A stretch of DNA of 64,000 nucleotides from Candidatus Poribacteria bacterium (lineage in GTDB: Bacteria > Poribacteria > WGA-4E > WGA-3G), in contig JAPPII010000010.1 in NCBI GenBank assembly GCA_028820845.1, forward strand, positions 15,537-79,536, given 5' to 3'. Position numbers and translations under genes: made by a program. This document shows positions 8,606 through 63,564 of the stretch, in pieces. A model generated the notes under the pieces. That model saw only the letters and a program-made list of their open reading frames with translations. It was not told the origin of the DNA and did not search any database. Numbering within the stretch: the stretch's first letter is position 1; each line of letters begins with the position of its first letter.

Positions 8606-8611
8606 CGGAAT

Positions 8612-8690
8612 AGTTATCGGTTATCGGTTGTCAGTTATCAGTTAAAGAGGTTTTTAAATCAAGCAGATAATCTCTTAACCGACGACCGAA
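8612..8690 (+). repeat. Post-stop word repeat (AGTTATCGGTTATCGGTTGTCAGTTATCAGTTAAAGAG) with an imperfect hairpin
   Basis: Read directly, just after the quinone oxidoreductase stop. Confidence 0.75.
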
Positions 8691-8753
8691 AGGAACTCTG
8701 TACAATAGATTTCCGTATCGATTCCTGACAGCCCACGGAAACGAACAAAATAA

Positions 8754-48350: not shown

Positions 48351-48365
48351 AAGGAGGAGAGACGA

Positions 48366-49817
48366 ATGATTCTACACATTGCGACGAAAGAGATACATCA
48401 CAATCTCACGACCCTCCGATTTGCCTTGATGATTATTCTTTTGCCTCTCCTGTTTTTGGCGAACGCGTTGATATACAGTTTAGGCGGTTACGGCTATACC
48501 ACGCAGATTAATACCTATAATCGACAGGTGGAACAGAAGAGAAAGCATATTAAAAATCACGCGGATACGAGTTTGGCGGAGTTAGCACTCAGGGGCCCTG
48601 GAGAGATTCCGAAGTTTCCGAGCCCAATGACTTTCTGTGCGGATGGAACTGATGAGCTCGTCCCGCGTTTTGTCAAGATGACCGGCGAAGGATCGTCCAG
48701 CCGCAGCGGTCAGAATCAAACTGAGGATTACGGATGGACACCGCCGTGGACACTGGAGTATCCTTTGCAGAGTAAAGTCGGGGGCGCGATGCAGCGGATT
48801 AAGATTGACTGGGTCTTCATCGGGGGCCTCATGAGTTTCTTTGCGATTTTATTCACTTTTGATGCGATCGCTGGGGAGAGAGCCCGCGGCACGCTGAGCC
48901 TCATAATGTCTAATACTGTCTCGCGCAGCCAAGTGTTATTAGGTAAATACCTCGGAGCGTTTTTGACCCTTATGGTTCCACTTGTAATTGGTATCCTGAT
49001 GAACCTGTTGTTTATCCTTATTTCCCGGAATATTCCTTTTGCGTCGAGTGAGTGGTTGCGAGTTTTGGGGATGGTCGGGTTGTTTGCATTACACGTCTCT
49101 GTTTTCATCTTTCTCGGGTTGTTTTTCTCAAGTCGGGTTTCAAACGCAATCACAAGTTTAGTATGGCTCTTATTGACTTGGGTCTGCTTGGCGTTCGTAT
49201 TTCCGAGTCTGCTTGGGACTTTTGTTGGCAATCTAAATCCGATTCCCTCCGTTGACGAAGTGTCAATGCAGAAAGATGTGCAGTTAAAACAGTTGAGAGA
49301 TGAATACCGACCTTTTGGTGGGTCAGAATCTAAGTTAAGGAAGGCAGCAGCCATCGAGAATCCCGAAGCAACGCGACGCTGGGCGACCTACCTCACCAAA
49401 GAGATAGAGACGAAAACTCGATTTAATGATGGACAAATCGACCAGCAGTTTAAGCAGGTGCAGCTCGCCCGAGATATTACTCAAATCTCACCGATAACGA
49501 CCTTCCAGTATGCAATGGAAGGACTTGCGAATACCGGCATCGTCAGTTATATGAATTTCGTCAAACAGGCGCGCCGTTATCGACAGACGTTCATAGATTT
49601 CATCGAAACCGAAGATCAGAGCGATCCGGAGAGTCTACACATCTATCCTGTAAAAGAGGGGTTGTCGCAGAAGCCGGTGAATCCAGCGGCGGTGCCGGTG
49701 TTCACAGAGCATATCTCGTATCGGAGTGTGTTATCTCAGGTCGGTTTGTTGGTGTTGTTTAATCTGCTATTTTTTATTATGGCGCAGGTTTCTTTTTTGA
49801 TGAGTGAGGTAAAATAG
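48366..49817 (+). CDS. ABC-2-type permease-like polytopic protein (paralog 2 of 4)
   Basis: IAGERARGTLSLIMSNTVSR motif. Same topology as 46824-48350. Confidence 0.75.
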   Translation: MILHIATKEIHHNLTTLRFALMIILLPLLFLANALIYSLGGYGYTTQINTYNRQVEQKRKHIKNHADTSLAELALRGPGEIPKFPSPMTFCADGTDELVPRFVKMTGEGSSSRSGQNQTEDYGWTPPWTLEYPLQSKVGGAMQRIKIDWVFIGGLMSFFAILFTFDAIAGERARGTLSLIMSNTVSRSQVLLGKYLGAFLTLMVPLVIGILMNLLFILISRNIPFASSEWLRVLGMVGLFALHVSVFIFLGLFFSSRVSNAITSLVWLLLTWVCLAFVFPSLLGTFVGNLNPIPSVDEVSMQKDVQLKQLRDEYRPFGGSESKLRKAAAIENPEATRRWATYLTKEIETKTRFNDGQIDQQFKQVQLARDITQISPITTFQYAMEGLANTGIVSYMNFVKQARRYRQTFIDFIETEDQSDPESLHIYPVKEGLSQKPVNPAAVPVFTEHISYRSVLSQVGLLVLFNLLFFIMAQVSFLMSEVK

Positions 49818-49960: not shown

Positions 49961-51340
49961 CTATTCAATCCACTCCATTGTTTCTCGGAGTTTTTCCTTT
50001 GCCCTTGCATGATCTCGGCGGGTTTGATAATAGACGCGTTGTGCCTCTGTAAATTGTGCTTGTGCTTGAAACGCATCGTTGTAGGTTAGACCTTGGTAAC
50101 CGGGGATTTCGACGGTGACTTCATCCAGCACGCGTTCAATCGTCCGTAACTGTTGCTCGAAAATTCTCACCCGCTTTTCTTCAATTTCCATCCGTTCTCT
50201 TGCATTTGCCACCTCACGGTAGTCCCGTCGCACCTCTACACGGATTAACTTTGTTTTTTCGACGTACTCGAGCTGCATTCGCTCAAGTTCTGCGACTTCT
50301 CGGGAGCGAAGGTTCTTCGTCTTATTTCCATCGTATAACGGGATGTTGAACTTAAAACCCAGTTCCCATCCATCTTGGGTGCGTGGATTTGTCTCAAAGA
50401 GACTCGCGCCATCTCGTTCACGGTCAAGTATCACCGGATCATAGATGGCTTTTGCGTCCCACGTCTGGTTACCTGCTTGTTGCTCCAGGAGCACACTGAG
50501 ATCCTTATAGCGTGCTTCAGCAGAGAGTTCAGGGAAGCGGTTCCAGATAGTCTCTCCGGCGAGACGTTCTTGACGCAACATATCGCCTTGTAAGTCGCGA
50601 AGGTCAAGACTATTGGTGATTGCGAGTTCAACGGCAGCTTCGAGCGTTACATCGTCGTCTGGAAGGGGGCGCGAAAGGACAACCTGTGCAAGTGGGTCAA
50701 GTCCAGTGAGACTGATGAGTTCAGCGGTATCCACGTCGAGTTGTCGTTGGAGTTCGTTGAGTGCGAGTTGCTGTTCTGAGAGTTCCAATTCTGTGTTGAG
50801 TTGCCTGAGAAATGGAATCCGCCTTTGGGTCTGTTCAATTTTTGTGCCTTCTAATTTCTTTTCGAGTTCCACCGCAATCGCACCCCGTTCTTTAATTTCT
50901 TCTTGCGTGAGAATAATATTATGCCAGAGATTCCGAACAGCGTAGACGATCTCCTTCTTGGCGCGTTCGTATTCAATTTCGGCTTTGCGAACCTCTTCCT
51001 GTGCGGCATCAAGACCTTGCGGGATTTCACCGAATTGCGCAAAGAGCATGCTCGCTTGTGCGCGAGTGAGATAGTCTCTGTCTTCGATGTCGCCATCTTT
51101 CTGTCTTTGATATTCGCCGGTGAGTCCGACCTGTGGGAGGTAAACAGCTTTAGAGACACGGAGGTTTGCCTTGGCGCGCTCGACAACTTTCTCTGCTTTT
51201 TTGACTGTTTCGTTGTTTTGTAAAGCGAGTGCTATTGCGCGTTCTGGCTGAAGTGAGACAAGGCGTTGTGCTGAGACGACACCCGCAATACTGAGAAACA
51301 GACACACTGCAAGTGCCGTCAACTTTTTGTTCATTCTCAA
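49961..51340 (-). CDS. TolC-family outer-membrane efflux protein
   Basis: Signal peptide. Two-fold repeat of long helical segments. AIALALQNNETVKKAEK...LPQVGLTGEY start is typical of OEP proteins. Confidence 0.8.
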   Translation of the reverse strand: MRMNKKLTALAVCLFLSIAGVVSAQRLVSLQPERAIALALQNNETVKKAEKVVERAKANLRVSKAVYLPQVGLTGEYQRQKDGDIEDRDYLTRAQASMLFAQFGEIPQGLDAAQEEVRKAEIEYERAKKEIVYAVRNLWHNIILTQEEIKERGAIAVELEKKLEGTKIEQTQRRIPFLRQLNTELELSEQQLALNELQRQLDVDTAELISLTGLDPLAQVVLSRPLPDDDVTLEAAVELAITNSLDLRDLQGDMLRQERLAGETIWNRFPELSAEARYKDLSVLLEQQAGNQTWDAKAIYDPVILDRERDGASLFETNPRTQDGWELGFKFNIPLYDGNKTKNLRSREVAELERMQLEYVEKTKLIRVEVRRDYREVANARERMEIEEKRVRIFEQQLRTIERVLDEVTVEIPGYQGLTYNDAFQAQAQFTEAQRVYYQTRRDHARAKEKLRETMEWIE

Positions 51341-51345
51341 GCTCC

Positions 51346-53709
51346 TTAACGGCGGCTGATGCGGATTGTGACAACCACAATCGCAATCATAAGGAGAATC
51401 AACGCACCGAAAAGGAGCGTCGTTACCGACATTTGCGTCTGTGATTCAACCTGTACTGTAATTGAACGGTCGCGTGCCTCAAACTTCCGGTTATCGACCG
51501 TGACTTCGGCGTTTAACTTCGCTTGATATTCGCCAACCCCGATATCCGCAGGTGGACTTAAGGTCAGTTGTATCTCCGTCTCCGCATTCCGTCCGAGTGA
51601 ACTGACAACTTCGGGGATAACCGTGTATTTCCAGTCCGTGTTGACATCAACGATCATACGGATATCGACGAGGTCGCGGGTACCGATATTCTTTAACGTC
51701 GCTGTCATGTTGACCTCTTCGCCTATTTTAATTGTCTGGAACGCATTCGGCACGAATACCTCAATCTCTGGAACACCTTTTGGAATCAGTTCAAACCGTT
51801 CAACCCCGCCTTGTATCCCCGCGATCCTATCGGCGGGTAAATCCAAGCGATTGTTGACCCCACCGAGTTCGTTTGCCTCTGCCTCGTCCAAAACAGCAAC
51901 ATAGAACTCAAGTGTACTGTCAAGATAGGAGGCATCCAGTTCTTCTGGCAGATAGACGATTAGGGACAAACTCCGTTTCGACTGTTCCTGCGTGAACTTC
52001 ACCTGTGACTGACGCGACTGCGTTTCTGGGTCTTGGAATTCAAAGGAGAGGCGGTTCAGCAGGTTAATGACGCGGAGTTGGAAAGTGTTTTCTGTTTCAG
52101 CCAACCGATCCAATGTCAAGTCATAAGTGACGCTGCTGCCGAGGTTCCCCTCCTGCGAAAATCGTAATGAACTGACGTTTACCACATCCAAGGCAGATTC
52201 TTTTTGTAGATAGATGAGGCGTGTGTCGGGTTCGGGGAGTTCGGGATACTTCAACTCCACCTTCAAGCTTTCGACATCTTTCTGAAGTTGAAACGTCAGT
52301 TCCACGGTTTCGTTGTAGCCGAGGACGGGTATCTTCGTTTCATAAGGTTTGACGATGTTTGTGTCATCGGTGACATCGAGCAAGGAGACGTAAATTCCTC
52401 GGATCTCGTTTGCCGCTGCAATCTCTTCAGGGGTTGCGTTGCTCGGCATCGCCTCGGTTGTGGAGGTGTTCTTGAGTTGAAGCGTCACCATCATTTGGTT
52501 GTCCACGCGAAACTTCTTCGCACTCAGGATAGAAATGTGGCGTGTATCTTCCTCAAGATGGATTTTTTTCGGGTACGGCTTGTCAAGGTATAGAATATGA
52601 ACCGTAACGCTATCAATATTCCGTCGGAGTTCAAAATCAAGAGTTGTCGCCTGTCCATCTTTCAGCGATGGGATCCGGTATTCGTAGGGGAAACCGATAA
52701 TCGCGTCAGTTTCGTCTCTGATGGAGACATAGACGTTGTTAATCTCTTGCGCTGTCGCGCCATTCGAGTAATCTGTGGGGTCAGTGGTGTCTGTTTCTTT
52801 TCTCTCTCCCTTTATGGCACCGTAGGTAAGTACAACCTCCAAGTGCCGTCGGTCGCCCTTCTTGTAGCGTCTCGCTGACACGACGGAGATGTAGGGGTCT
52901 TCCTGTTTTAAGTGGATATTCTTATTGTCAGTCTCACCCGAGTATATCAACTCGACAACGACATCTCGTACATCCTCTTTTATGAGTTCAAACTCTAACG
53001 TAACGGCTTCACCCTCTTTGAGCGTTTCGATGCGTTGTTCGTAAGGTTCAGCGATAATTGCCCCACTTGTGCCGTAACCTTCCTGCTCTTTAATCGACAC
53101 AAAGATGTCGTCAATCTGTGCACTAATAATAATTTCGCGTCCCAACACTTTGGAGCTCTCAACGAGTGTGACGGGGGATGAGCTATTCCGCAACGTGATT
53201 GAGAACAGTTCTCTTCCGTCGTCGGATTCATATAAGTTTGTGCTTTCGACAGTGATGTGCCACTCGTCCTTGAGCGAGTTAAGTTCGGTGTCTTGCAGCG
53301 TCAGTTTTGCTTGTTCGTATTCGGAGACGGCGGTTTCGTAATCTTCCTCCGCTTTATTCACTTGAGAGACAGTGACGATATTATTTGCCTCCATCATCAT
53401 CGCTTTAAGATTTTCAAGTTCAACCAACTTCTTTTTCATCAGTTGTTCCTTGAGTTCCATTTCCAAGCGTTTCGTCTCTATCTGGATTTGGCGGCTCTGT
53501 TCCTCTTTGGTTTTTGCTCTGTTCTCATCGGAAACCGGTTGGGTCTCTTCTGCAAACGCTATCGGTGTTTCTGTAGGCAGCAATATCCCTATCGTGCCGA
53601 TAAAAATAAACACGAGCATTGGAATTGAAAGATTGGAAGGTTGGAAGATTGGTGTCACCCATTCTTCCATCCATCCATCTGTCCGTCCAAGTATCTTCCA
53701 TCCATCCAT
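51346..53709 (-). CDS. Doubly membrane-anchored 787-aa protein: N-terminal TM, coiled coil, three ~116-aa internal repeats, NEW3/CARDB-like domain, C-terminal TM
   Basis: Hydrophobic segments MLVFIFIGTIGILL and LLFGALILLMIAIVVV. Heptad-rich aa 60-145. Repeats share the pattern VYVSI..(x)..PYE.RI..LK.G...TL.FEL...V..V.V...Y....K.IHL.E. C-terminal TLKNIGTRDL...GEYQAKL pattern. Confidence 0.7.
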   Translation of the reverse strand: MDGWKILGRTDGWMEEWVTPIFQPSNLSIPMLVFIFIGTIGILLPTETPIAFAEETQPVSDENRAKTKEEQSRQIQIETKRLEMELKEQLMKKKLVELENLKAMMMEANNIVTVSQVNKAEEDYETAVSEYEQAKLTLQDTELNSLKDEWHITVESTNLYESDDGRELFSITLRNSSSPVTLVESSKVLGREIIISAQIDDIFVSIKEQEGYGTSGAIIAEPYEQRIETLKEGEAVTLEFELIKEDVRDVVVELIYSGETDNKNIHLKQEDPYISVVSARRYKKGDRRHLEVVLTYGAIKGERKETDTTDPTDYSNGATAQEINNVYVSIRDETDAIIGFPYEYRIPSLKDGQATTLDFELRRNIDSVTVHILYLDKPYPKKIHLEEDTRHISILSAKKFRVDNQMMVTLQLKNTSTTEAMPSNATPEEIAAANEIRGIYVSLLDVTDDTNIVKPYETKIPVLGYNETVELTFQLQKDVESLKVELKYPELPEPDTRLIYLQKESALDVVNVSSLRFSQEGNLGSSVTYDLTLDRLAETENTFQLRVINLLNRLSFEFQDPETQSRQSQVKFTQEQSKRSLSLIVYLPEELDASYLDSTLEFYVAVLDEAEANELGGVNNRLDLPADRIAGIQGGVERFELIPKGVPEIEVFVPNAFQTIKIGEEVNMTATLKNIGTRDLVDIRMIVDVNTDWKYTVIPEVVSSLGRNAETEIQLTLSPPADIGVGEYQAKLNAEVTVDNRKFEARDRSITVQVESQTQMSVTTLLFGALILLMIAIVVVTIRISRR

Positions 53710-53729
53710 ATTTTTTCACCCTTCTCTCT

Positions 53730-54464
53730 CTACTCAGGCGCGTCTTCTTCAGATTCATATCCAGCGACATAGTGCAGGTACAACGCCTCAAGGTCCTCTT
53801 TTTGAATCTCGTCGCGCGTGAGTTCCCGCTCCAGGTTACCTTCCACAAGGATTCCTATCCTATCGGCGATCTCCTTCGCACGGAAAATATCGTGCGTGGA
53901 CATGAAGATGGCTTTCCCTTCCTCTTTGAGTTGGCGGAGTAGGTTCAAGAAATCGGCACCGCCCTTGGGATCCAAGCCGGAGGTCGGTTCATCGAGCAGG
54001 ACGGCTTGTGCGTTCTTCATAATCGCAATAGCAATCCCCAAGCGTTGACGCATCCCTTTAGAGAACGTCTTGACGCGCCGTGTAAACGCTTCCTCTGGTA
54101 AACCGACACGTCCGAGTGTTGCATCTAATTCCTCATTGGATACCTTCTTCCGTCCACCGAGTTTCGCAAAGAAAGACAGGTTTTGACGTGCCGTGAAGTT
54201 GCGATAGAGTTCGACGTTCTCGGAGACGTAGGCGAGATGCTTCTTGGCTTCCAGTGGAAACTTAGGTATCTCAATGTCCCCGACGAGTGCGGTGCCGCTT
54301 GTAGGTTCGATAAAGTTCAGGAGCATGGAGATGGTCGTACTTTTCCCTGCTCCGTTTGCGCCGAGAACGACATAGATTTCGCCATCATCCACTTTTAGAT
54401 TCAAGTTGTTAACGGCTAAAACGCTTTCATTATAGACTTTCGTGAGTTCGCGGGTTTCTAACAT
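53730..54464 (-). CDS. ABC transporter ATP-binding protein
   Basis: Walker A GANGAGKST, signature SKGMRQR, Walker B VLLDEPTSGLD. Confidence 0.92.
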   Translation of the reverse strand: MLETRELTKVYNESVLAVNNLNLKVDDGEIYVVLGANGAGKSTTISMLLNFIEPTSGTALVGDIEIPKFPLEAKKHLAYVSENVELYRNFTARQNLSFFAKLGGRKKVSNEELDATLGRVGLPEEAFTRRVKTFSKGMRQRLGIAIAIMKNAQAVLLDEPTSGLDPKGGADFLNLLRQLKEEGKAIFMSTHDIFRAKEIADRIGILVEGNLERELTRDEIQKEDLEALYLHYVAGYESEEDAPE

Positions 54465-54536
54465 TGGGTTTCTCCTACAGTTGGTTTTCTCTGTGTATAT
54501 GATACCAGAAATTTAAAGGGTTTTCAAGCGAGACCT

Positions 54537-55211
54537 TTATCGGTTTTTGCTGTTGCCAGTGCGAATGCTCTCAGTAATATTGGTAGAACTGAAGGGTCCT
54601 TTCTCGCTGTGATGGAACTGTTCTCTCGCGCCCAGAATCTCGATACGGTGATTTACCAACTTATCCATATAAGCAGCTTTGTAAGTTTCCCAATCCGTTG
54701 TCGGTGGAATATCCAAAATGCCTAACTGTTGCAGATTCGGGTTGTCTTCGAGAAGTGCCAACGTGTGCCGTTTTGATAGGTAGCGTGAGTAGTCGCCGAA
54801 ATTTTCTATGGTAACGCCTCCGTCCAGAAGGTGTTGGAGCCATTCTTCTCGCGGGTATCTTGCATCTATCTCGCGTTCTGTGAAGGTGCTAACATAATTT
54901 GCGGTTTCTATGCCAACGCCTTTACGATGGATATTCACCTCGGTCTTTGCATGTCCACGGTTGTAGTCTGCATTAAATGCTTGCATAAGTTCACGTGCGT
55001 TTTGGGGTCCAGTATACTTTTTGTGATTGGGGGGTGCTGACCAACTGAATTCTACATGTTCGCGTAACTGGATATTCGCTATTTCGCTTTCAGAAATGTA
55101 TTTCTGCGTGTGCGAATAGTCGGAGCAACTGCTGAGAAAAATGGCAAGTCCCAAAACTGTGAAAAGTGAAAGTCTGGATAGAACGTCTACGCTGCGAAAA
55201 GTGTTTTTCAT
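54537..55211 (-). CDS. Hypothetical lipoprotein
   Basis: Lipobox FLSSC after a hydrophobic leader. No recognised domain. Confidence 0.55.
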   Translation of the reverse strand: MKNTFRSVDVLSRLSLFTVLGLAIFLSSCSDYSHTQKYISESEIANIQLREHVEFSWSAPPNHKKYTGPQNARELMQAFNADYNRGHAKTEVNIHRKGVGIETANYVSTFTEREIDARYPREEWLQHLLDGGVTIENFGDYSRYLSKRHTLALLEDNPNLQQLGILDIPPTTDWETYKAAYMDKLVNHRIEILGAREQFHHSEKGPFSSTNITESIRTGNSKNR

Positions 55212-57162: not shown

Positions 57163-58722
57163 TTATACCTCTGAACGGATAAAAATCAGGAATGCCCCTA
57201 AAAGAAATACGCCGAGCAGTCCGACGAGCAACAGTATATCCAGTATTGCTGCGTTGAAGGTATCGCTAAAAGTGATTTTATCCTCGAAGTTTGGAAGTGC
57301 CTGCGGTGAAATCGGCTTGTTGGACATTCCCTCCGGGATTCCGATGATATGGGGGCTTTCTGTATCGGCACGATCGGTTTCAATGATGAAGTCTCGGAAC
57401 TGTCTGATATGAAGGTGCACACTGTCAAGAAATTGCAGGTGGCGGTTCAACCCCGTACCAGTCATAGATTCAAGGGCGTATTGGACGATGGCTGCTGGCG
57501 AGAAACGTGTCACCGCCCTGGCGCGCTGGACTTGCGCGAGTTGTGCCCTTAAATGCTCGCGGTTTAGCCGCTCCCGGATTTCGACATCTTTGTTGACAAA
57601 CTCAGCCTTGATACGCAATTCTTCCTCATCTGCATCTGCCTTTTCGGCTTCGGCTTTCGCCATCGCCGCCATAAGTTCTGCTTGTTTCTCCTTTGCCAAT
57701 TTTTCCGCTTCTTTCGGCGAGGTTTTCGCAAGGTCCATGAGTTGACTGAGAAGACCTCCGGTTTGTGATTGCGCTTTGTCCATCATTTGCTGGTCGAAAT
57801 CATCGTTAATCTGCTCAAGCGCGCGCCTTTTTGCGGTTTCCCTTTGATGAGCGGTTTGGACGGGAGACATCCATTTTGTGGAGAGCGTGCCGAGAGTGGA
57901 AGGCATAAAGACGACGAGTGCCACCCAGATAATCAACAGCACGACGAGACTCACCCGGGTGTCTCGCGTGCCAGCGGAGACCATCAACCCGATTGCGATG
58001 AAGATACTGGCGTAACCTAAGGCGATCAGCATAATCATCCCCAAACGTCCCCAGTCTGCCGCCCCGAGCTGCGTCCAACTATCTGTGGAAATTACCGCCA
58101 GATTCAACAGTACTGCAAAACAGAACGGAATGAGAACGGCTATCAGGGTACCTAAGAACTTTCCGACTAAGAGTGCGGGACGCGAAATCGGGTTGGCGAG
58201 GCATAATCGGAGCGTTCCGCTTTCTCTTTCGCCAGAGAGGGCATCGAAGGTAAACAAGAGGGGAATGAAAGAGAGTAGATAGGTAATGATAAATACGTAG
58301 TCTATCTTTGTCGCCTTGGGACGTAGGTCCCGCGCATTCGGATTGGCGGTGGGATAGTCCGCCGACCAGATGCTTTTGACTTGTATGCCTAATCCCGCAG
58401 TTCTACTCCAGGATCCCCAATTTTGCGTGCCGCGATTCGGCAAAAAGGCATCCGCGCTGTCTGCAATGAAAGTCAATGCGGATGGCTGTTTGTAAAGTGT
58501 CCCAGGCCCCTTTCTCAGGAGTTCATAGAGCTCCGTCCGCGACTGCAATGTGTCGCGGTCACGGGCGACGTTCTCAGAATAGCTCCGGACCTTGTCTGGC
58601 TGGCTCTGAAGGTGCACCACGGCATTGGTTATCATGAGTGCTGCCATGATGATGACAGTCAAGGCGAAGCGGAGGCTGTTGAGATGGTCAAAGAACTCTC
58701 TTTGAATGATATGTCTAATCAT
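57163..58722 (-). CDS. ABC-2-type permease-like polytopic protein (paralog 3 of 4)
   Basis: AAGGAG lies 8 nt before the ATG at 58722 (MIRHIIQREF). LSGERESGTLRLCLANPISR motif. Confidence 0.75.
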   Translation of the reverse strand: MIRHIIQREFFDHLNSLRFALTVIIMAALMITNAVVHLQSQPDKVRSYSENVARDRDTLQSRTELYELLRKGPGTLYKQPSALTFIADSADAFLPNRGTQNWGSWSRTAGLGIQVKSIWSADYPTANPNARDLRPKATKIDYVFIITYLLSFIPLLFTFDALSGERESGTLRLCLANPISRPALLVGKFLGTLIAVLIPFCFAVLLNLAVISTDSWTQLGAADWGRLGMIMLIALGYASIFIAIGLMVSAGTRDTRVSLVVLLIIWVALVVFMPSTLGTLSTKWMSPVQTAHQRETAKRRALEQINDDFDQQMMDKAQSQTGGLLSQLMDLAKTSPKEAEKLAKEKQAELMAAMAKAEAEKADADEEELRIKAEFVNKDVEIRERLNREHLRAQLAQVQRARAVTRFSPAAIVQYALESMTGTGLNRHLQFLDSVHLHIRQFRDFIIETDRADTESPHIIGIPEGMSNKPISPQALPNFEDKITFSDTFNAAILDILLLVGLLGVFLLGAFLIFIRSEV

Positions 58723-58735
58723 TGTGTTTTCTCCT

Positions 58736-60211
58736 TTAAACTTCAACTCTGATAAAAATCAGAAAGCTTACCATAAACAGCACCAGATTCATGAGGAAAA
58801 GAATTGATACATCTGGCAGGGCGCGTTGTGCGTTTTCGGAGACATCCGCCCGCGCGAAGCGAAACTGCGGCAAATCCCACCAATCTACTGCACCTTGGTC
58901 AGAAGCAAACCAGCGTCGACTCGCAAACGCGTCTTTATCGTGCAAATAGTCAATCAGTATCTGGCGGTATGCCTGGACTGCGCCGACGAAATCTAACATG
59001 CCATTCATATCCGTGCCTGCCCAGGCGGAAGTTGCAAAGGTATAGAGGCTTGCTGGGCTGAATTTCATCAACCGTTCATCCCATGTTGCTTGTCGAATGG
59101 TGGTTCGTGCCAAGCGTTGTTCGTTTATCAATCCTGCCTTTTCTGCTGCGCGGATGTGCGTTGTACCGATGAACGCTTGATAGTTTTGGAAATGCGGGAG
59201 ACTCGGTTCTGAATCGGCGTTCACTTTGATCATGTTAAACCCATATCTTCTGTCGGAAGAAGATGATGATCCTGAATAACCGATATTAAACCGAGGCGGT
59301 TCCCCCTCAAGCGGACTGTTGGCTAAGAACCGTTGTTCTTCCCGTTCGACTTCTTCCCAAATTTGATTAATCTGTTGATTCGCGGATTGTCTTTCTGCGC
59401 GCATATCGCCCACGGGATTAAGGGTAAATCGACTCCAGTTCGGATAAACAAGTACCAAAACGACCCATAGAAACATACAGAGCATCAGGGACGTAGCCGT
59501 GCGGCGGGTCATAGTGGAAATCAACAGTCCAATCAGATAAAAAACAGATAAGTAGACAATTGTAGTACCGACGATTCCACCAACCCTCAGAAAATCTGTT
59601 GCATCCAGCTGAATCGAACTGGCGAGGGAAAGCTGAAGCATCACTATCAGTAAGCTCATCAGCACAGGCAGCAGCAGACACACCATCGCGGCGAGATATT
59701 TGGCAAATAGAATCGTCCCTCGTCGGACCGGATGCGAGATAACCAGACGCAAGGTGCCGCTTTCCCAATCGCCTGCGATTGCATCGTAAGCGAAAAGCAG
59801 GGCGAGTAGACTTAGCACCACTTGAAAGATAGACACCAGATCGATCTGAGAAAAAAGATTTAGGTACGGGTTCTCCAAGTTTCGTGCGGAGACGCTTGAA
59901 ATCGTCGGTACCTCGCCGTGATAAATTTCAACGGTTGTCCCGAGACGCTTCTCTAATCCTGCACTCAAAAGGCTAAGCGGATTCGGGGGGCGTTCAACGA
60001 AAAGTTCTAACTGCGAATAGGTTTCTGCCTCTACCGCTTTCTCACGATGGACTTTCGCTTGTTGGCTGTAACTCGCGACTCGGTTTTCGTGAGCGTCAAT
60101 CAGCACAACGGTATTGGCGACAACGAGCAGGAGCGTAATCACAACGGCGGCTAAAAACCGCGCGCTCATCAAATGTCCCACGAGTTCTTGGCGTATTAGG
60201 GTGTGTAACAT
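58736..60211 (-). CDS. ABC-2-type permease-like polytopic protein (paralog 4 of 4)
   Basis: MLHTLIRQEL start. IAGDWESGTLRLVISHPVRR motif. Same topology as the other three. Confidence 0.75.
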   Translation of the reverse strand: MLHTLIRQELVGHLMSARFLAAVVITLLLVVANTVVLIDAHENRVASYSQQAKVHREKAVEAETYSQLELFVERPPNPLSLLSAGLEKRLGTTVEIYHGEVPTISSVSARNLENPYLNLFSQIDLVSIFQVVLSLLALLFAYDAIAGDWESGTLRLVISHPVRRGTILFAKYLAAMVCLLLPVLMSLLIVMLQLSLASSIQLDATDFLRVGGIVGTTIVYLSVFYLIGLLISTMTRRTATSLMLCMFLWVVLVLVYPNWSRFTLNPVGDMRAERQSANQQINQIWEEVEREEQRFLANSPLEGEPPRFNIGYSGSSSSSDRRYGFNMIKVNADSEPSLPHFQNYQAFIGTTHIRAAEKAGLINEQRLARTTIRQATWDERLMKFSPASLYTFATSAWAGTDMNGMLDFVGAVQAYRQILIDYLHDKDAFASRRWFASDQGAVDWWDLPQFRFARADVSENAQRALPDVSILFLMNLVLFMVSFLIFIRVEV

Positions 60212-60337: not shown

Positions 60338-62005
60338 TTACCGAACAGAGATTCGGGCTCGAAAAGCGTTGGTGCCTCCTTCCTGATTGACCCAACCGCC
60401 AGTGGCACGGAGTTGAAAGACCTGCCCCTTGTCAAATCGATAAGTGATTGTTCCGGTTTCACGGGGTTGGATTCCCCATGCCTGGGCGAGTGCGTTCTGA
60501 GGTGTTCCTTCTGTCTGAAGTGCATTGTCGCCAGGGAACAGATCGAACGAACCGACAAGGTCTGCCCTACCAACTTGAATGGCGATGGTGAGTGTGCCGC
60601 CGTTTTCAAAGGCGGTCGTATCAATTCTTATAACAGTGGCATCTTGAGGGGCAGTCGCATAACCAAAAGTGTCCAGTACTTCCACGGACGGTTGTATCCG
60701 GTCGAGGACAACCCCGCGACTGCTTGACAGTGGCATCGGGATGCTCTCACCGACTCCGGGGCGTTTTCCTGCCAACGCTTCTGAAAGGAACAGCCGATAC
60801 GCCTTCGCCTTATTGCGCAAGGGGAGCTCGTTAACAGGCTGCCTACCCATGAGTTCAAGTTCAGGTGAGATAATCAAAGAATCTATAGGTGAGAGTCTCT
60901 TCCAGCCCTGAACGATGATTTGTGTCAAAGGCGGTAGGTCGTCAATAGTGTTTGCATCTCGTAAGCGTTTCATGTCGGTATTGAGTACCCACGTGTTGAT
61001 AAAACTGTCGTTCAAGAGTTCGATATTTTTATCATCAGAGAGAGCAACTGCCCTCAGGCTCTTGCCGCTCCCTCCGCACGCTTCATCAGTCAGTGGACCA
61101 TTTGTTGAAACAATGTGAATCGGTTTCTGTTCTGCCCGTGCCATTTCTAAAGCTGCATCTACCGATACCCAGTTAATGTACTGTGATTTGTAAAAACGTC
61201 GTATTAAGATACGTTCGGCTTCTGATAGAGGTATTGCTTCAGAGAATTGGGTATCTTGAATTATAGTTTCTGTACCGGCACGAAGTTCGATTTGCGGGCA
61301 GAAGCCGGCATCCGTTGTAAAGATGCGCCTATCGTTATGGTATCGGTTGACATCGAAGTTGAGTGTGCCGTGAGGGACGTACATTTGAAAGAAGGCGACT
61401 TTCTCGTCTGGACGGTTGAGGACGAGATGTCCAGTAAACTGTGAAGGGGTGAACCAACCGTCCGCTAACCTGAACTCTGCATGAACGCGAAACACGATGT
61501 GGGCTATTTCGGCATTGTAGGCACGTAGACACGCCCATGCCCCGCGCGAATCTCCCGAATTGATGTGCATATCGAGATGTGGGTTCGGGTGAAGTTGCCT
61601 CAGCAACGCCAGTAAACCGTCTTGTTCGATTTCCCAGAGATCGCCAACAGAGACACCATTCCCACGTGATGTCGGATTTTCGCGGAGGAGGCTTTGCAAC
61701 CTTTGGAGGAACGTTTTCCCGCTCCCCTTTCGTAAGCCTACTTCCGTCGGAAGAAACGCCTGAAAGACCGCTGTCGGATACTGCTTTTCAGGCTCGGCGA
61801 CTCGTAGGTTCGCCAGTGCGTCCCACTCTACATGGAAATTGCTTCCGGTGTACGCAATCGGGGCGATAAAGCCTTTGACGACAACGTTAGCGTCGCTGTC
61901 AAGCGTGAGAGTGATTCTGTTGGCAGTGGGTGTGTCAGCTGCAAATCCCCAGTATGGCAGGAACAGAACAGAAATCAGAAGGTTCCCGATGCCTAATTTC
62001 TTCAT
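60338..62005 (-). CDS. Secreted protein sharing a ~105-aa C-terminal domain with the adjacent sigma/anti-sigma fusion
   Basis: GGAGG lies 7 nt before the ATG at 62005. Signal peptide MKKLGIGNLLISVLFLPYWGFA. The C-terminus ATVIRIDTTAFENGGTLTIAIQVG...GTITYRFDKGQVFQL...GGTNAFRARISVR aligns with the C-terminus of 62050-63381. Confidence 0.7.
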   Translation of the reverse strand: MKKLGIGNLLISVLFLPYWGFAADTPTANRITLTLDSDANVVVKGFIAPIAYTGSNFHVEWDALANLRVAEPEKQYPTAVFQAFLPTEVGLRKGSGKTFLQRLQSLLRENPTSRGNGVSVGDLWEIEQDGLLALLRQLHPNPHLDMHINSGDSRGAWACLRAYNAEIAHIVFRVHAEFRLADGWFTPSQFTGHLVLNRPDEKVAFFQMYVPHGTLNFDVNRYHNDRRIFTTDAGFCPQIELRAGTETIIQDTQFSEAIPLSEAERILIRRFYKSQYINWVSVDAALEMARAEQKPIHIVSTNGPLTDEACGGSGKSLRAVALSDDKNIELLNDSFINTWVLNTDMKRLRDANTIDDLPPLTQIIVQGWKRLSPIDSLIISPELELMGRQPVNELPLRNKAKAYRLFLSEALAGKRPGVGESIPMPLSSSRGVVLDRIQPSVEVLDTFGYATAPQDATVIRIDTTAFENGGTLTIAIQVGRADLVGSFDLFPGDNALQTEGTPQNALAQAWGIQPRETGTITYRFDKGQVFQLRATGGWVNQEGGTNAFRARISVR

Positions 62006-62049
62006 TTTCAAACCTCCAAACAAAGTTGAAAGAATAAGTAAAAATAGGA

Positions 62050-63381
62050 TTACCGAATGGAAATTTGTGCGTAAAAGGCGTTGGTACTTCCTTTTTCGCT
62101 CTGCCAATCGCTTGCAGCTCCCAATCGAAAGGCTTGCCCCTTGTCAAATTGATAGGTGATTGTTCCTGTACCACCGGGTGGGATTCCCCACTGATGTGCA
62201 AGCGCATCGCTTGATCTACGTATGCCTCCCCTTGGAAGTTTGCTGTCGCCATCAAATAGGTCGAATGAACCCGCTGCTTCGCCGCTACCGACGCGAATGT
62301 CAATCGTTAACATCCCGCCGTCTTCAAACGCTGTGGCATCAATGTGGACAACGGTATAGTCCAGATGCCCGCTTTCCGGCATCCGAAAAAAGTCCAATAC
62401 CTCCATCTGCGTCTGCTGTGTTTCTTCTGTTAGCACTTCCGGGTCTTTTGCTTCGAGAGCTGCCATTCGGTGGGTATCTGCCCCTGGACTGGATCCGGTG
62501 TTTCTTCCCGGTGTATCTGTGCGACCGAGTTGGGTTTTCACGGCGGGTTTAACCTGCCTCATAGGTGCCGCAGGTGCCTCTACGATGTCAATTCTCATCT
62601 CCGAAGTCGCGTCTAAACTGTAGGGGTGCTGGAAATAGGTTATATATTCATTGCCCATTCCGAGGATCAGCAGTGCCACGATAGCAGTTGAAGCGGTTAC
62701 TGCCCAAGGGAGCTGGGGCGTGTTTCCTTTCGGTGGTGCAGGTTTGATGCCGCCTCCTTTGTCTTTCACGGCTTGTATGATGTTCTCAGTCAAATTTGGA
62801 GAGATCTGGAAGGTGCTGAGTGCCTCTTGAATCAAGGGTTCTTCCTTCTTCAAACGTTGACGGGCGCGACTGAGCCGACTCTTAATCGTATTGGCGGATA
62901 CCCCCAGAAACTTGCTAATTTCTTCACACGTCATCTCTCCGAAGTAGTAAAGTGTTATGATGGTGCGATCGCTCTCTTGTAATTTGGCAAGCAATTTTTT
63001 GACGACTTCTCGCTGTGCTTCAGTTACTGTTTTTGCTTGCTCATCTGCCACATGTTGGGAATAGGTGTCTTTTCCTTTTCTCATAAGGTCAATATCCTCC
63101 ACGAGTTGGGCATGCAGCCGTTTCTTCCGGAGCCGCGCAATGCAGCACCGGGTCACAATCACATATAGCCATCCCGGAAATCGCTCCAGTTCTTTCAGGG
63201 TTGCCAGATTTTGATGGACTTTCAGAAAGGTCTCTTGCGTAATATCTTCAGCGATATGGAAGTCCCCAATTTTGCGCCACGCGAGGGCGTGGACGTGTTT
63301 CTGGTGTTTTTTCACGAGCGTGGTGAAAGCGGTTTCATCGCCATCAAGTGTGCGGCGAATTAATTCAGCGTCATTTTGCAT
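62050..63381 (-). CDS. ECF sigma factor fused to a single-pass transmembrane anti-sigma-like module and an extracytoplasmic C-terminal domain
   Basis: Sigma regions 2 and 4 (DETAFTTLVKKHQKHVHALAWRKIGDFHIAEDITQETF; LQESDRTIITLYYFGEMTCEEISKFLGVSANTIKSRLSRARQRL), a TM helix (LPWAVTASTAIVALLILGMG), then ~200 further residues. Confidence 0.8.
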   Translation of the reverse strand: MQNDAELIRRTLDGDETAFTTLVKKHQKHVHALAWRKIGDFHIAEDITQETFLKVHQNLATLKELERFPGWLYVIVTRCCIARLRKKRLHAQLVEDIDLMRKGKDTYSQHVADEQAKTVTEAQREVVKKLLAKLQESDRTIITLYYFGEMTCEEISKFLGVSANTIKSRLSRARQRLKKEEPLIQEALSTFQISPNLTENIIQAVKDKGGGIKPAPPKGNTPQLPWAVTASTAIVALLILGMGNEYITYFQHPYSLDATSEMRIDIVEAPAAPMRQVKPAVKTQLGRTDTPGRNTGSSPGADTHRMAALEAKDPEVLTEETQQTQMEVLDFFRMPESGHLDYTVVHIDATAFEDGGMLTIDIRVGSGEAAGSFDLFDGDSKLPRGGIRRSSDALAHQWGIPPGGTGTITYQFDKGQAFRLGAASDWQSEKGSTNAFYAQISIR

Positions 63382-63537
63382 CGGATACCTCCAAGAAGGG
63401 ATTTTTCGTATGGGGCGTAGGAGTTACGCGTTCATCAAGCGTTCCTGATAAGCTCTCCAGTTAACTATAACTGCTTCGATCCTATTCGTCAATTGAGGAA
63501 GCAAAGAGGTGGCGTTAATCCCGAATTGCCCATTAAT

Positions 63538-63564
63538 GACGCGCGTTGAGGAAAAATGGTTGCA
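63538..63564 (-). promoter_or_regulatory. ECF-type promoter candidate TGCAAC-N17-CGTC upstream of the sigma/anti-sigma fusion gene
   Basis: Minus strand reads tatgcaaccatttttcctcaacgcgcgtcatt, about 150 nt upstream of the ATG at 63381. Confidence 0.55.

Follow-up and report, generated by a model that had tools for sequence, protein, structure and literature searches.

A membrane-tethered ECF sigma factor of Poribacteria shares its extracytoplasmic C-terminal domain with the secreted protein encoded next to it

Introduction

Why should a sigma factor carry, on the outer side of the membrane, the same domain that terminates a secreted protein encoded by the adjacent gene? The question is raised by the DNA of a Poribacteria sponge symbiont, in which a 64-kb stretch (here called the window, i.e., the whole sequence that was analyzed) encodes a membrane-anchored ECF sigma factor on the minus strand. 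An earlier note on this locus had proposed that the shared C-terminal domain (CTD) couples the secreted protein to the release of the tethered sigma factor. The current analysis examines the architecture of the two proteins, their evolution, and their relatives in the phylum, and weighs the explanations for their relationship.

Results

Architecture of the sigma factor

From its N terminus onward, the sigma factor comprises the cytoplasmic regions 2 and 4, a conserved short helix, a single transmembrane (TM) helix, a conserved juxtamembrane motif, a variable linker, and the CTD (Table 1), and its orthologs are intact proteins of 440 to 450 aa in about 50 Poribacteria loci. The Pfam families PF04542, PF08281, and PF07638 cover residues 2 to 180, and the NCBIfam model TIGR02937 matches with 93.3 bits (cut-off, 42.9). 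Sigma regions other than 2 and 4 had no match in Pfam or NCBIfam, and this composition, with regions 1.1 and 3 lacking, is that of an ECF (group 4) sigma factor. According to hydropathy, LPWAVTASTAIVALLILGM is the sole strongly hydrophobic segment, which is preceded by a Lys-rich flank and followed by an acidic flank and the extracytoplasmic C-terminal region. The family matches and hydropathy thus bear out what the earlier note had read from the 443-aa product, i.e., ECF regions 2 and 4, a single TM helix, and an extracytoplasmic tail: the protein is a one-component, single-pass membrane-tethered ECF sigma factor.

The designation as a sigma/anti-sigma fusion is not supported. No anti-sigma family (FecR, zf-HC2/ZAS, and RskA types) was found at an E value of ≤0.1 in Pfam or ≤0.01 in NCBIfam, region 4 is separated from the TM helix by 43 residues (181 to 223), and the segment PLIQEALSTFQISPNLTENIIQAV located there is too short for an anti-sigma domain. 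On the opposite side of the membrane, the juxtamembrane motif NEYITYFQHPYSLDATSEMRIDIVE is a candidate processing or regulatory site.

Table 1. Features of the sigma factor locus (window coordinates)
Feature	Position	Strand	Basis or remark
Sigma gene: 443-aa membrane-tethered ECF sigma with extracytoplasmic CTD	62050..63381	-	ORF; Pfam and NCBIfam ECF sigma matches; orthologs
Sigma-70 region 2 (residues 22-88)	63118..63318	-	PF04542 (Sigma70_r2), E 2.2e-14
Sigma-70 region 4 (residues 126-179)	62845..63006	-	PF08281 (Sigma70_r4_2, residues 126-177) and PF04545
Conserved cytoplasmic segment PLIQEALSTFQISPNLTENIIQAV, between region 4 and TM helix	62761..62838	-	Kept across the whole scaffold family
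Single TM helix LPWAVTASTAIVALLILGM (residues 224-243)	62653..62712	-	Kyte-Doolittle maximum 1.93; same position in nearly all family members
Conserved extracytoplasmic juxtamembrane motif NEYITYFQHPYSLDATSEMRIDIVE	62578..62652	-	Family consensus RFQxPYSLDAxSExTVE; kept in sigma fusions whatever the outer domain
Variable linker of sigma	62416..62577	-	dN/dS 0.29-0.60
CTD copy 1 (residues 323-443), eight-stranded beta jelly roll	62053..62415	-	BLASTP; AF2; Foldseek; purifying selection
Secreted protein gene, 555 aa: signal peptide, N-terminal domain, thioredoxin-like middle part, CTD	60338..62005	-	ORF
Signal peptide MKKLGIGNLLISVLFLPYWGFAA	61937..62005	-	Direct sequence reading and hydropathy
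N-terminal domain SelN	61166..61936	-	pLDDT below 50, poorly modelled
Middle part, thioredoxin-like (tentative)	60695..61165	-	AF2 secondary-structure order, pLDDT 65-80
Cys310 (TGC) and Gly311 (GGA)	61073..61078	-	Gly311 at the position of TGA in 138/144 related gene copies
Retained hairpin GAGGGC-AGTT-GCTCTC	61040..61055	-	17 nt after Gly311 codon; SECIS-like in relatives
CTD copy 2 (residues 438-555)	60341..60694	-	BLASTP; AF2
Promoter P1, ECF type, TGCAACC-N15-GCGTCA (= GCAAC-N17-CGTC)	63537..63564	-	About 155 nt upstream of sigma start codon
Promoter P2, ECF type, ATGCAACC-N16-CGCGTCACTATAA	55311..55339	-	Same motif as P1; conserved at same place in orthologous loci
Two ABC-2 family permease genes (DUF3526-containing), same operon	57163..60211	-	PF12679, PF12040; synteny L001-L004
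562-aa protein, N-terminal hydrophobic segment	55460..57148	-	No Pfam or NCBIfam match; syntenic in relatives
Downstream unit: 224-aa lipoprotein, ABC ATPase, 787-aa NPCBM_assoc/CARDB protein, TolC-like outer-membrane factor	49961..55211	-	Family matches and hydropathy

The secreted neighbor and the two CTD copies

The mechanically called ORF of the neighbor (589 aa) begins with a TTG at position 62107 and thereby extends into the sigma gene; translation more credibly starts with the ATG at 62005, which is preceded by GGAGG and yields a protein of 555 aa with an N-terminal signal-like segment, in agreement with the signal peptide claimed before. SelN had no match in Pfam, NCBIfam, or the PDB. 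The AF2 model of the middle part has the order beta-alpha-beta-alpha-beta-beta-alpha, which fits that of thioredoxin; there was one weak match to DUF255 (E value of 0.16), the comparison with TrxA in hhalign was negative (probability of 2%), and the PDB profile search was empty.

BLASTP aligned the last 121 residues of both proteins with 64 identities (53%) and an E value of 6e-33, and the Smith-Waterman score of the CTDs (297) lay about 50 standard deviations above that of 1,000 shuffles (28.5 ± 5.0; maximum, 52). The homology, previously judged by eye with roughly half of the positions counted as identical, is hence significant in a formal alignment, and the estimated length of the domain increases from ~105 to ~120 aa. 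The reported similarity at the DNA level was recovered as well, i.e., 66.8% identity across 292 nt of the CTD-coding sequences and a 32-mer at 60423-60454 and 62135-62166 with two differences. No third copy of the CTD is present within the window.

Estimates of dN/dS were 0.03 to 0.23 for the sigma-fused CTD, similar to those for the sigma domain (0.08 to 0.14), and 0.29 to 0.60 for the linker; the sigma-fused CTD is under purifying selection. The sigma CTDs constitute orthologous clades of their own with 80 to 100% mutual identity and 45 to 66% identity to the CTD of the neighbor, and nothing in these separate clades points to concerted evolution with the partner. The sigma CTD is best explained as a paralog of the secreted protein's C-terminal domain that is of old origin and has been maintained on its own.

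Fold and distribution of the CTD

Modelled alone with AF2, the CTD is an eight-stranded beta sandwich (pLDDT of 94.2; pTM of 0.87), whose nearest solved folds in Foldseek are the ColH collagen-binding domain (rmsd of 2.7 Å), CBM6, CBM86, TNF-like lectins, and GOLD domains. Hundreds of jelly rolls match, the best with TM-scores of 0.6 to 0.7 at only 6 to 15% identity, and in view of this generic fold a binding function is an analogy. Most of the invariant residues look like core positions, from which no binding site can be named. With respect to sequence, the CTD is an uncharacterized family without a match in Pfam, NCBIfam, or the PDB, and to that extent the earlier claim of a novel domain stands; the domain is, on the other hand, neither rare nor new in its fold, since its profile retrieved 336 cluster representatives of many architectures (E value of ≤0.001) and the beta jelly roll is common. 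Carriers include enzymes with a C-terminal CTD (e.g., an S9 peptidase) as well as caspase, TPR, and TonB_C proteins, and the domain occurs in one-, two-, or three-copy variants.

Among the top 148 representatives were 10 BlaR1-type M56 proteins. The CTD was located after the M56 region in all five that were inspected, which come from other genomes, and the gene adjoined that of a BlaI-type repressor in the three loci retrieved. This position behind the membrane part of proteins paired with BlaI fits an extracytoplasmic input module and makes a sensor role for the CTD plausible.

Promoters and operon

Upstream of the operon of the sigma factor lies P1 (GCAAC-N17-CGTC), which agrees with the ECF promoter type, i.e., an AAC-containing -35 element and a CGT-containing -10 element separated by 16 to 17 nt. 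The pattern TGCAACC-N14-18-GCGTCA has exactly two matches in the 64 kb (0.02 expected), P1 and P2, which are both found on the correct strand in the appropriate intergenic regions and are conserved in orthologous loci; P2 precedes the downstream ABC-exporter genes. Judging by position and motif type, P1 and P2 would be read by this sigma factor. No gene for a site-1 cleavage protease was identified in the operon.

Gene pairing and the sigma scaffold family

All relatives that were retrieved belong to the Poribacteria. Their loci contained about 50 intact sigma-TM-CTD genes, each adjoining a gene of the secreted family, a count that is biased because the loci were selected through the secreted protein (51 sigma-fused CTD copies were present in the loci drawn with this query). 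When the sigma factor served as the query, all four sigma-CTD genes with an upstream flank, the only informative loci in this unbiased sample, had a secreted-family gene 125 to 405 nt upstream. The pair is conserved in both gene orders and, together with the intact reading frame, across species with 50 to 60% identity in these proteins. In locus L003, a simple deletion fused the CTD of the neighbor onto the sigma factor and removed the rest of the partner while the reading frame remained intact. Large arrays of the secreted family without a sigma factor inside 7 kb also exist.

The sigma factor is a member of a large scaffold family whose outer domains vary, e.g., WD40 propellers, Redoxin/AhpC, and a whole probable selenoprotein module. 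Of 74 complete sigma fusions, 24 have a nearby non-sigma gene whose product is paralogous to their outer part (28 to 73% identity), and several of these neighbors are directly adjacent and have signal peptides. The pattern of a sigma-X fusion next to an X gene thus recurs with unrelated X domains. The only non-CTD sigma factor of the sigma-query sample that matched the secreted family (L116/L117) contains the module inside its own ORF.

Probable selenocysteine in the secreted family

In the secreted family, 138 of 144 copies contain an in-frame TGA, never TAA or TAG, behind an invariant Cys; the frame is kept downstream, and the codon probably encodes selenocysteine (Sec). The hairpin located 17 nt after the UGA (6-bp stem; loop, AGKU) is 98.1% paired in 121 distinct sequences and contains frozen synonymous sites (Arg AGG/AGA in 121/121; Leu CTC in 118/121), with a modest covariation of nine cells changed on both sides. 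The hairpin had no match in Rfam, and the family had no sequence match to known selenoprotein families. Among the 40 long ORFs of the window, 7 use TGA as a normal stop, which shows that the codon is not globally reassigned; no tRNA gene is present in the window. Sponge-symbiont bins show an enrichment of SelA and SelB (PMC5649159), and Sec hydrogenases have been reported from Poribacteria (PMC13582414).

As in thioredoxin-fold selenoproteins, the UGA of the relatives is in frame, adjoins the invariant Cys, and falls where the first helix of a probable thioredoxin-like fold begins; a conserved hairpin follows. A Cys-Sec pair is known from the GCUG motif of thioredoxin reductase. Unlike in known selenoproteins, the residue in non-TGA relatives is Gly, Thr, or Trp, and none of these relatives is a Cys-containing homolog. 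The TGA was lost in 6 of 20 copies downstream of a sigma gene and in no other copy. The copy of the window has GGA, and with Gly at the probable catalytic site its secreted protein may not be an enzyme acting on any shared ligand.

Discussion

Overall, the best explanation of the locus as a whole is a model of CTD sensing and proteolytic release, to which we assign a probability of roughly 45%. The CTD would be the input module of the sigma factor and a binding module, through which the sigma factor and the secreted protein would recognize the same ligand or the same envelope or host structure. Occupancy of the sigma CTD would control a cleavage near the conserved juxtamembrane motif, and intramembrane proteolysis would then free the sigma domain, which would drive P1, and thereby the sigma factor, the secreted protein, and the ABC-2 permeases, as well as P2 with the lipoprotein, the ABC ATPase, and the TolC-like factor. 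Ligand binding by the CTD, proteolytic release, and the use of P1 and P2 by this sigma factor are the steps that we infer. Several observations speak against the model: the jelly-roll fold is generic, the invariant CTD residues look mostly like core positions, no site-1 protease gene was identified in the operon, and the secreted protein of the window has Gly at the probable Sec site. The likely benefit of a sigma factor with a neighbor-type CTD, a design used repeatedly in Poribacteria, is that the cell can detect the targets to which its secreted proteins bind.

Fused ECF sigma factors have been reported, e.g., the ECF243 sigma/anti-sigma hybrid IutY of Pseudomonas putida, whose sigma factor is released by proteolysis, and the ECF48, ECF52, and ECF53 fusions such as SCO4117, for which such a release is predicted (PMC8999054). 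The window sigma resembles them in three respects: one polypeptide unites the ECF sigma with a single TM helix and an extracytoplasmic C-terminal region, a separate anti-sigma gene is absent, and the proposed activation is by regulated proteolysis. They differ from it in having a FecR-like or zinc-finger anti-sigma domain before the membrane, where the window sigma has ~43 residues and no such domain; its outer domain is a new sequence family common to the neighboring gene, and its phylum is the Poribacteria. ECF01-Gob of Planctomycetes, a subject of Jogler et al. in 2012, reportedly consists of an ECF sigma, a C-terminal TM segment, and WD40 repeats, and we know of no description of the paralog-of-neighbor rule for this group. 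The comparison is one of architecture: both are tethered without an anti-sigma domain, and Poribacteria paralogs of the window sigma carry WD40 propellers outside, whereas the window sigma itself has a 120-aa jelly roll. ECF01-Gob exists as a group with a C-terminal domain (PMC5766207).

The sharing of the sensor family with the adjacent secreted protein, a rule that also holds for 24 of 74 family members, is reminiscent of RsgI/SigI in Clostridium thermocellum. There, the controlled secreted proteins carry modules of the type that also forms the extracellular sensor, which therefore sees the same substrate; RsgI is, however, a separate anti-sigma factor with known carbohydrate-binding modules and SigI is not an ECF, whereas the window sigma is an ECF fused in one polypeptide, with neither a separate RsgI nor a SigI-type sigma. 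BlaR1/MecR1-BlaI systems (Pfam M56 and Penicillinase_R) likewise possess a membrane protein with an outer sensor domain, but their output is a zinc protease that inactivates a repressor, and they are relatives of the CTD, not of the window system.

Instead of a common ligand, the CTD copies could bind each other, a contact already considered in the earlier note, so that the secreted protein holds the tethered sigma factor off or on and its redox state, consumption, or export alters the contact and hence sigma release. The strictly conserved gene pair in both orders and the paralogy of the whole outer domain with the neighbor in many family members would be compatible with such a contact, jelly rolls among the fold matches (TNF-like lectins and Ena pilus subunits) do oligomerize, and the loss of TGA in sigma-downstream copies alone (6/20) would fit a catalytically dead regulatory partner. 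We nevertheless consider it unlikely in light of the separate clades of sigma CTDs, which are just 45 to 66% identical to those of the neighbors, the intact frame of L003 after deletion of its partner, and the large secreted-family arrays without a nearby sigma factor. That the two genes are not functionally coupled at all is rather improbable. The CTD would then be a general periplasmic anchoring or targeting module, e.g., for binding of an envelope polymer, and the adjacency a product of local duplication and domain shuffling in a cassette-rich genome, in line with its occurrence on unrelated proteins (caspase, S9 peptidase, TPR, and TonB_C), the high local turnover indicated by tandem arrays and copy number variants, and the simple deletion behind the L003 fusion; the retention of pair and frame between species with 50 to 60% identity, the purifying selection on the CTD, and the recurrence of the sigma-X pattern with unrelated domains argue against it.

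Two further explanations concern the manner in which the sigma factor is activated. Its CTD might be a decoy that suffers the same proteolysis, oxidation, or unfolding as the secreted CTDs and whose destruction frees the sigma factor and induces replacement and export functions. Such a sentinel would agree with outer domains that are paralogs of co-encoded secreted products (24/74 fusions), with other members whose outer part is a redox domain (Redoxin/AhpC) or the complete probable selenoprotein module, and with a juxtamembrane motif at which trimming could expose a site-2 substrate, but it explains the use of the CTD in BlaR1-type proteins no better than ligand sensing does, and we regard it as quite improbable. 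Activity of the sigma factor while tethered, in the manner of ToxR/CadC and switched by CTD-driven clustering or conformational change, is very improbable: a sigma factor has to associate with core RNA polymerase and accompany it during initiation, and IutY, the experimentally studied fused ECF, is freed by proteolysis (PMC8999054), even though an anti-sigma domain that would keep the window sigma inactive is missing and a flexible stretch of ~40 residues links region 4 to the membrane.

Beyond the model of CTD sensing and proteolytic release for this locus, a joint reading of the data is possible, which we put forward tentatively. Poribacteria may use a modular form of sensing on one scaffold of ECF sigma, TM helix, and juxtamembrane motif, in which new sensors arise by capture of a copy of a neighboring secreted protein or domain, and each sigma factor, through an outer domain that resembles its products, would monitor either the ligand of the protein family under its control or what becomes of that family. 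The relative L116 would be a sigma factor of this kind that apparently carries Sec in its own outer domain, and the pair in the window would be the instance that connects transcription with a large family of secreted Cys-Sec proteins not described before.

Results

A domain shared by a membrane-tethered sigma factor and its secreted neighbour

The genes of the 443-amino-acid ECF sigma factor and of the secreted protein are adjacent on the minus strand of the window (see the table), and their products share a C-terminal domain (CTD) of about 120 residues. The final 121 residues of each are 53% identical in BLASTP (E value, 6e-33), the local alignment score of the two CTDs is 297 compared with 28.5 ± 5 in 1,000 shuffles, and their coding DNA shows 66.8% identity across 292 nt. 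No third copy was found in the window. The similarity noticed by eye in the earlier note is thus real and highly significant, and the 32-mer quoted there was located at 60423-60454 and 62135-62166; the proposed domain length of about 105 residues and the gene start needed small corrections. As a mechanical ORF, the secreted gene encodes 589 amino acids from a TTG and overlaps the sigma gene, but the ATG at 62005 has a GGAGG before it and starts a typical signal peptide, which gives a product of 555 amino acids.

Pfam places Sigma70_r2 at residues 22-88 and Sigma70_r4_2 at residues 126-177 of the sigma factor, and NCBIfam assigns it to the ECF superfamily (TIGR02937, 93 bits versus a cut-off of 43). 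Only residues 181-223 lie between region 4 and the membrane, and an anti-sigma domain was detected in none of the examined members of the wider family of fusions described below. "Membrane-tethered sigma factor" is therefore the right name; this part of the earlier interpretation held, and the "sigma/anti-sigma fusion" was not supported. Between the window and four orthologs, dN/dS is 0.03 to 0.23 for the CTD, 0.08 to 0.14 for the sigma core, and 0.29 to 0.60 for the linker.

Selected features of the window (nucleotide positions, or residues where indicated)
Feature	Position	Strand	Remarks
Gingipain-like C25 peptidase, 2,090 aa	8754-15026		Ends in FlgD_ig domain
Trypsin-like protease	17312-19081		Ends in FlgD_ig domain
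FGE-sulfatase-domain protein, 751 aa	32427-34682
Second sigma fusion, 997 aa	43810-46803	+	DUF3108-like, M61 peptidase, and PDZ domains
Lipoprotein, 224 aa	54537-55211	-	First gene past P2; lipoprotein signal LAIFLSS|C
P2, ATGCAACC-N16-CGCGTCACTATAA	55311-55339	-	Gap before 224-aa lipoprotein gene
SECIS-like hairpin	61040-61055	-	Retained despite TGA to GGA change
Gly codon GGA	61073-61075	-	Position of TGA in relatives
Sigma gene, 443 aa	62050-63381	-	ORF
TM segment of sigma factor	Residues 224-243		LPWAVTASTAIVALLILGMG; only strongly hydrophobic segment
P1	63537-63564	-	Upstream of sigma gene

Family and fold of the CTD

The CTD matched nothing in Pfam, NCBIfam, or the PDB sequences. A word-indexed search with the CTD alone returned 16 fragments only, an artefact of gene callers that stop at an in-frame TGA. 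A profile built from 11 copies retrieved 336 proteins at an E value of ≤0.001 (215 at ≤1e-10) from 1.84 billion cluster representatives; these are 90 to 924 amino acids long and mostly carry the domain at the C terminus. Judged by its sequence, the family is uncharacterised. Outside Poribacteria, a single taxon name, Syntrophobacteraceae, was attached to the clusters.

AlphaFold2 confidently predicted an eight-stranded beta sandwich (43-sequence alignment; pLDDT, 94.2; pTM, 0.87), for which Foldseek found hundreds of jelly rolls in the PDB at 6 to 15% identity. The best TM-scores, about 0.6 to 0.7, were obtained with GOLD domains, the Tk-SP C-terminal jelly roll, PliG, Ena pilus subunits, the ColH collagen-binding domain (rmsd, 2.7 Å), CBM6, CBM86, and TNF-like lectins. 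The fold is accordingly a common one that frequently serves in binding.

Among the top 148 of the 336 representatives, Pfam partners comprise Peptidase_M56 (10 proteins), caspase (6), TonB_C (2), M48 (2), TIR (1), S9 peptidase plus PD40 (1), and sigma-70 (1), as well as TPR. In all five M56 proteins examined, the CTD follows the M56 membrane region, and the genes of three M56-CTD proteins traced to their contigs all adjoin a Penicillinase_R (BlaI-type) repressor gene. The CTD hence occurs in transmembrane signal transducers of another, unrelated class, based on proteolysis, and this setting provides the best independent support for its role as an input module. BlaR1-type M56-CTD genes beside BlaI-type repressor genes were seen in L155 (3615-5914), L156, L157, and L158, in genomes of about 10 Mb; nearby N_methyl and DUF1501 genes suggest Planctomycetota.

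Distribution and arrangement of the gene pair

One genome per GTDB species was scanned with the N-terminal alignment of the secreted protein, and the scan was repeated with only N-terminal and full-length sequences in the alignment, the fragments having left no conserved block. It yielded 241 matches, from which 74 loci were kept, all from Candidatus Poribacteria MAGs. Four home-made HMMs run on six-frame translations resolved three arrangements. In arrangement A (the window, L001 to L019 except L003, and L041), the sigma-TM-CTD gene precedes the secreted gene. Arrangement B has one to four secreted-family genes before the sigma-TM-CTD gene, and a longer second sigma fusion often comes next. 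Arrangement C consists of secreted-family arrays, up to six genes long, that have no sigma gene within 7 kb. Intact sigma-TM-CTD ORFs, 440 to 450 amino acids long, number about 50. The sole split one (L001, 7270-8603) encodes 244 plus 200 amino acids; its frame shifts by one base directly behind the TM helix, which either marks it as a pseudogene or reflects a sequencing error.

Because these loci had been chosen through the secreted gene, the sigma fusion was used to query JGI metagenomes for a second sample. The CTD was present in 5 of 95 sigma ORFs there, and all four sigma-CTD ORFs with an upstream flank had a secreted-family gene 125 to 405 nt upstream. Within an arrangement, sigma-fused CTDs are 80 to 100% identical to each other and 45 to 66% identical to the CTD of the neighbour; the two are old paralogs that have been maintained separately. 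Concerted evolution or recent gene conversion was discarded, since the sigma CTDs make their own clades.

A scaffold with exchangeable outer domains

The metagenome scan returned 429 relatives, in nearly all of which sigma regions 2 and 4 are followed by a helix (consensus FQISPNLTENIM), a stretch rich in Pro, a single TM helix, and a conserved outer motif (consensus RFQxPYSLDAxSExTVElvDaPiV); beyond this motif, as many as about 800 amino acids are variable. In ten members of this scaffold family, Pfam detected WD40 propellers, Redoxin/AhpC, BNR/sortilin-like repeats, LRR plus GHL15, Kelch repeats, and an inactive M16 peptidase domain. The second fusion of the window is 45% identical to the 443-amino-acid protein in its sigma part, and a convincing TM helix was not found in it (hydropathy maximum, 1.02). 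It is also followed by two ABC-2/DUF3526 permease genes (46824-49817); such permeases were ruled out as general partners of the scaffold (4 of 58).

The outer parts (beyond residue 300) of 74 complete fusions from loci L078 to L154 were compared with the rest of their own locus. A paralog was encoded by a neighbouring non-sigma gene in 24 cases (28 to 73% identity, up to 735 aligned residues) and by a neighbouring sigma fusion in nine; none was found for the other 41, whose flanks are often incomplete. Directly adjacent paralogs with signal peptides include those of L114 (73% over 387 amino acids), L126 (64%), and L124 (58%). The window pair is thus one case of a recurrent design, in which a sigma-TM-outer domain X fusion adjoins a gene for a paralog of X. 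In L098, the gene after the sigma fusion (8170-10461) has no sigma domain; it encodes a helix and a TM segment like those of the scaffold plus its neighbour's outer domain (62% identity over 723 amino acids), making it a sigma-less twin of that neighbour.

How such fusions change is illustrated by L003 (8001-9767; protein P0086), where a 588-amino-acid sigma factor bears two CTDs and a separate gene for the secreted protein is missing. At the junction AHISI|AGKRPGLGEKDPVPLSN, the end of the sigma factor's own CTD is joined in frame to the linker preceding the neighbour's CTD, with deletion of the neighbour's signal peptide and entire N-terminal and middle parts. The acquired CTD and the one on the secreted protein of L041 are 88% identical.

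Promoters and putative regulon

When the sigma upstream regions of arrangement A were aligned, a conserved block emerged, ATGCAACC-N16-CGCGTCAYTATAA, which is an ECF-type promoter of the form GCAAC-N17-CGTC. The pattern TGCAACC-N14-18-GCGTCA has exactly two matches in the 64-kb window (0.02 expected), P1 and P2, and occurs at the same two places in orthologous loci. The minus-strand cluster is accordingly read as a P1 unit (the sigma-CTD and secreted proteins, two ABC-2 permeases, and a 562-amino-acid unknown protein) and a P2 unit (the lipoprotein, which matched no family, an ABC ATPase, a 787-amino-acid NPCBM_assoc/CARDB protein, and a TolC-like outer-membrane factor). From motif type, position, and conservation, we infer that the 443-amino-acid sigma factor reads both.

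A probable selenocysteine in the secreted family

Homology matches to the secreted family were mostly fragments of two kinds, either ending exactly in ...GPLxDE[AVS]C or starting at the next Met. Translation of related loci revealed an in-frame TGA immediately past the Cys (e.g., L002, 7899-7901), at which gene callers split the genes into about 308 plus about 200 to 400 amino acids. It is present in 138 of 144 copies across the fetched loci, never replaced by TAA or TAG; the downstream frame is kept in all 138, and the preceding Cys is invariant. The six exceptions encode Gly (GGA in four, GGC in two), and all are sigma-downstream copies of arrangement A, the window included. Elsewhere in the protein database, further relatives without the TGA encode Gly, Thr, or Trp at this position, and the preceding Cys is also missing from two.

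A hairpin (GAGGGC-AGKU-GYCCUC) located 17 nt past the TGA is 98.1% paired in 121 distinct sequences, and both of its sides have changed in 9 cells. At synonymous sites the hairpin is frozen (Cys TGC and Arg AGG/AGA, 121 of 121 each; Ala GCA, 115 of 121; Leu CTC, 118 of 121), while third positions vary freely in the codons beyond. The region past the TGA had no match in Rfam. Global UGA reassignment was rejected, since TGA ends 7 of the 40 long ORFs of the window, as was a pseudogene origin, given 138 independent copies with frame and adjacent Cys preserved. SelA and SelB are enriched in sponge-symbiont bins (PMC5649159), and Sec-containing hydrogenases have been reported from Poribacteria (PMC13582414). 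The TGA is likely to encode selenocysteine in a Cys-Sec pair; the rival explanation, programmed read-through, stays alive because no homolog found has Cys at that position. The family is probably a large undescribed set of secreted Cys-Sec selenoproteins, with arrays of up to six genes.

The full-length secreted protein was modelled poorly by AlphaFold2 (pLDDT, 53), and Foldseek matched only the CTD part. The order of predicted secondary structures, of moderate confidence, tentatively places the Cys-TGA site at the start of helix 1 of a thioredoxin-like fold, for which a PDB profile search, Pfam at an E value of ≤10, and hhalign against Escherichia coli TrxA gave no real support. Among sigma factors without a CTD in the JGI sample, only L116 (4998-7300; second assembly copy, L117) matched the secreted family: a scaffold sigma factor carries, fused on the outer side of the membrane, the complete N-terminal and middle module with its in-frame TGA (FDAESC*GTGKSLRAVVLS). 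Its product would be a sigma factor containing selenocysteine. Protein P0074 (541 amino acids) begins immediately past one family gene's TGA and extends to the Cys that directly precedes the TGA of the following module, so that either two-module proteins exist or the genes lie in tandem with no intervening stop. In a divergent subfamily, the motif is WGVFDDESC-TGA-ASGK (L017, 5206; L019, 5500).

Discussion

We propose, at a probability of roughly 45%, that the CTD is a binding module whose copy on the sigma factor lets it sense what the secreted family binds, releasing it onto P1 and P2. Occupancy of the CTD would control cleavage near the conserved juxtamembrane motif, intramembrane proteolysis would free the sigma factor, and the free protein would then switch on both promoters. 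A direct contact between the CTD of the sigma factor and that of its secreted partner is a less probable alternative, suited by the loss of Sec in some sigma-adjacent secreted copies. That the proteins are not coupled at all and the shared domain reflects nothing but local shuffling seems unlikely, and it is more doubtful still that the sigma factor carries its CTD as a sentinel copy reporting damage. Activity of the sigma factor while still tethered, with no release by proteolysis, is very improbable.

An ECF sigma factor with a fused transmembrane sensor is a kind of system that is already known. Fused membrane-tethered ECF sigma factors are known mostly through bioinformatics, and to our knowledge the signal has been identified for almost none of them. 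The ECF01-Gob group, with WD40 repeats, is a relative in kind. The fused ECF sigma factor IutY is released by Prc and RseP, and the predicted fusions ECF48, ECF52, and ECF53 are alike in kind (PMC8999054); ECF groups with C-terminal extensions have been described in general (PMC7826278). The sigma factor of the window resembles IutY in its hardware but lacks its anti-sigma domain, whereas the logic of the proposed mechanism would be like that of RsgI/SigI of Clostridium thermocellum. What appears to be new is the CTD sequence family, the paralog-of-neighbour rule on a conserved Poribacteria scaffold, and the link to a probable secreted selenoprotein family.

Paralogy of the outer domain with the adjacent secreted protein in about a third of the 74 fusions offers a rule for guessing the signal of each sigma factor, and the scaffold family represents a natural set of swappable input modules. 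The rule makes the logic of one-component sigma factors testable and may supply parts for synthetic biology. Since the CTD is also found in BlaR1-type proteins elsewhere, the ligand of one system could explain many. A phylum-restricted, probable selenoprotein family of sponge symbionts bears on selenium biology, annotation quality, and symbiont physiology.
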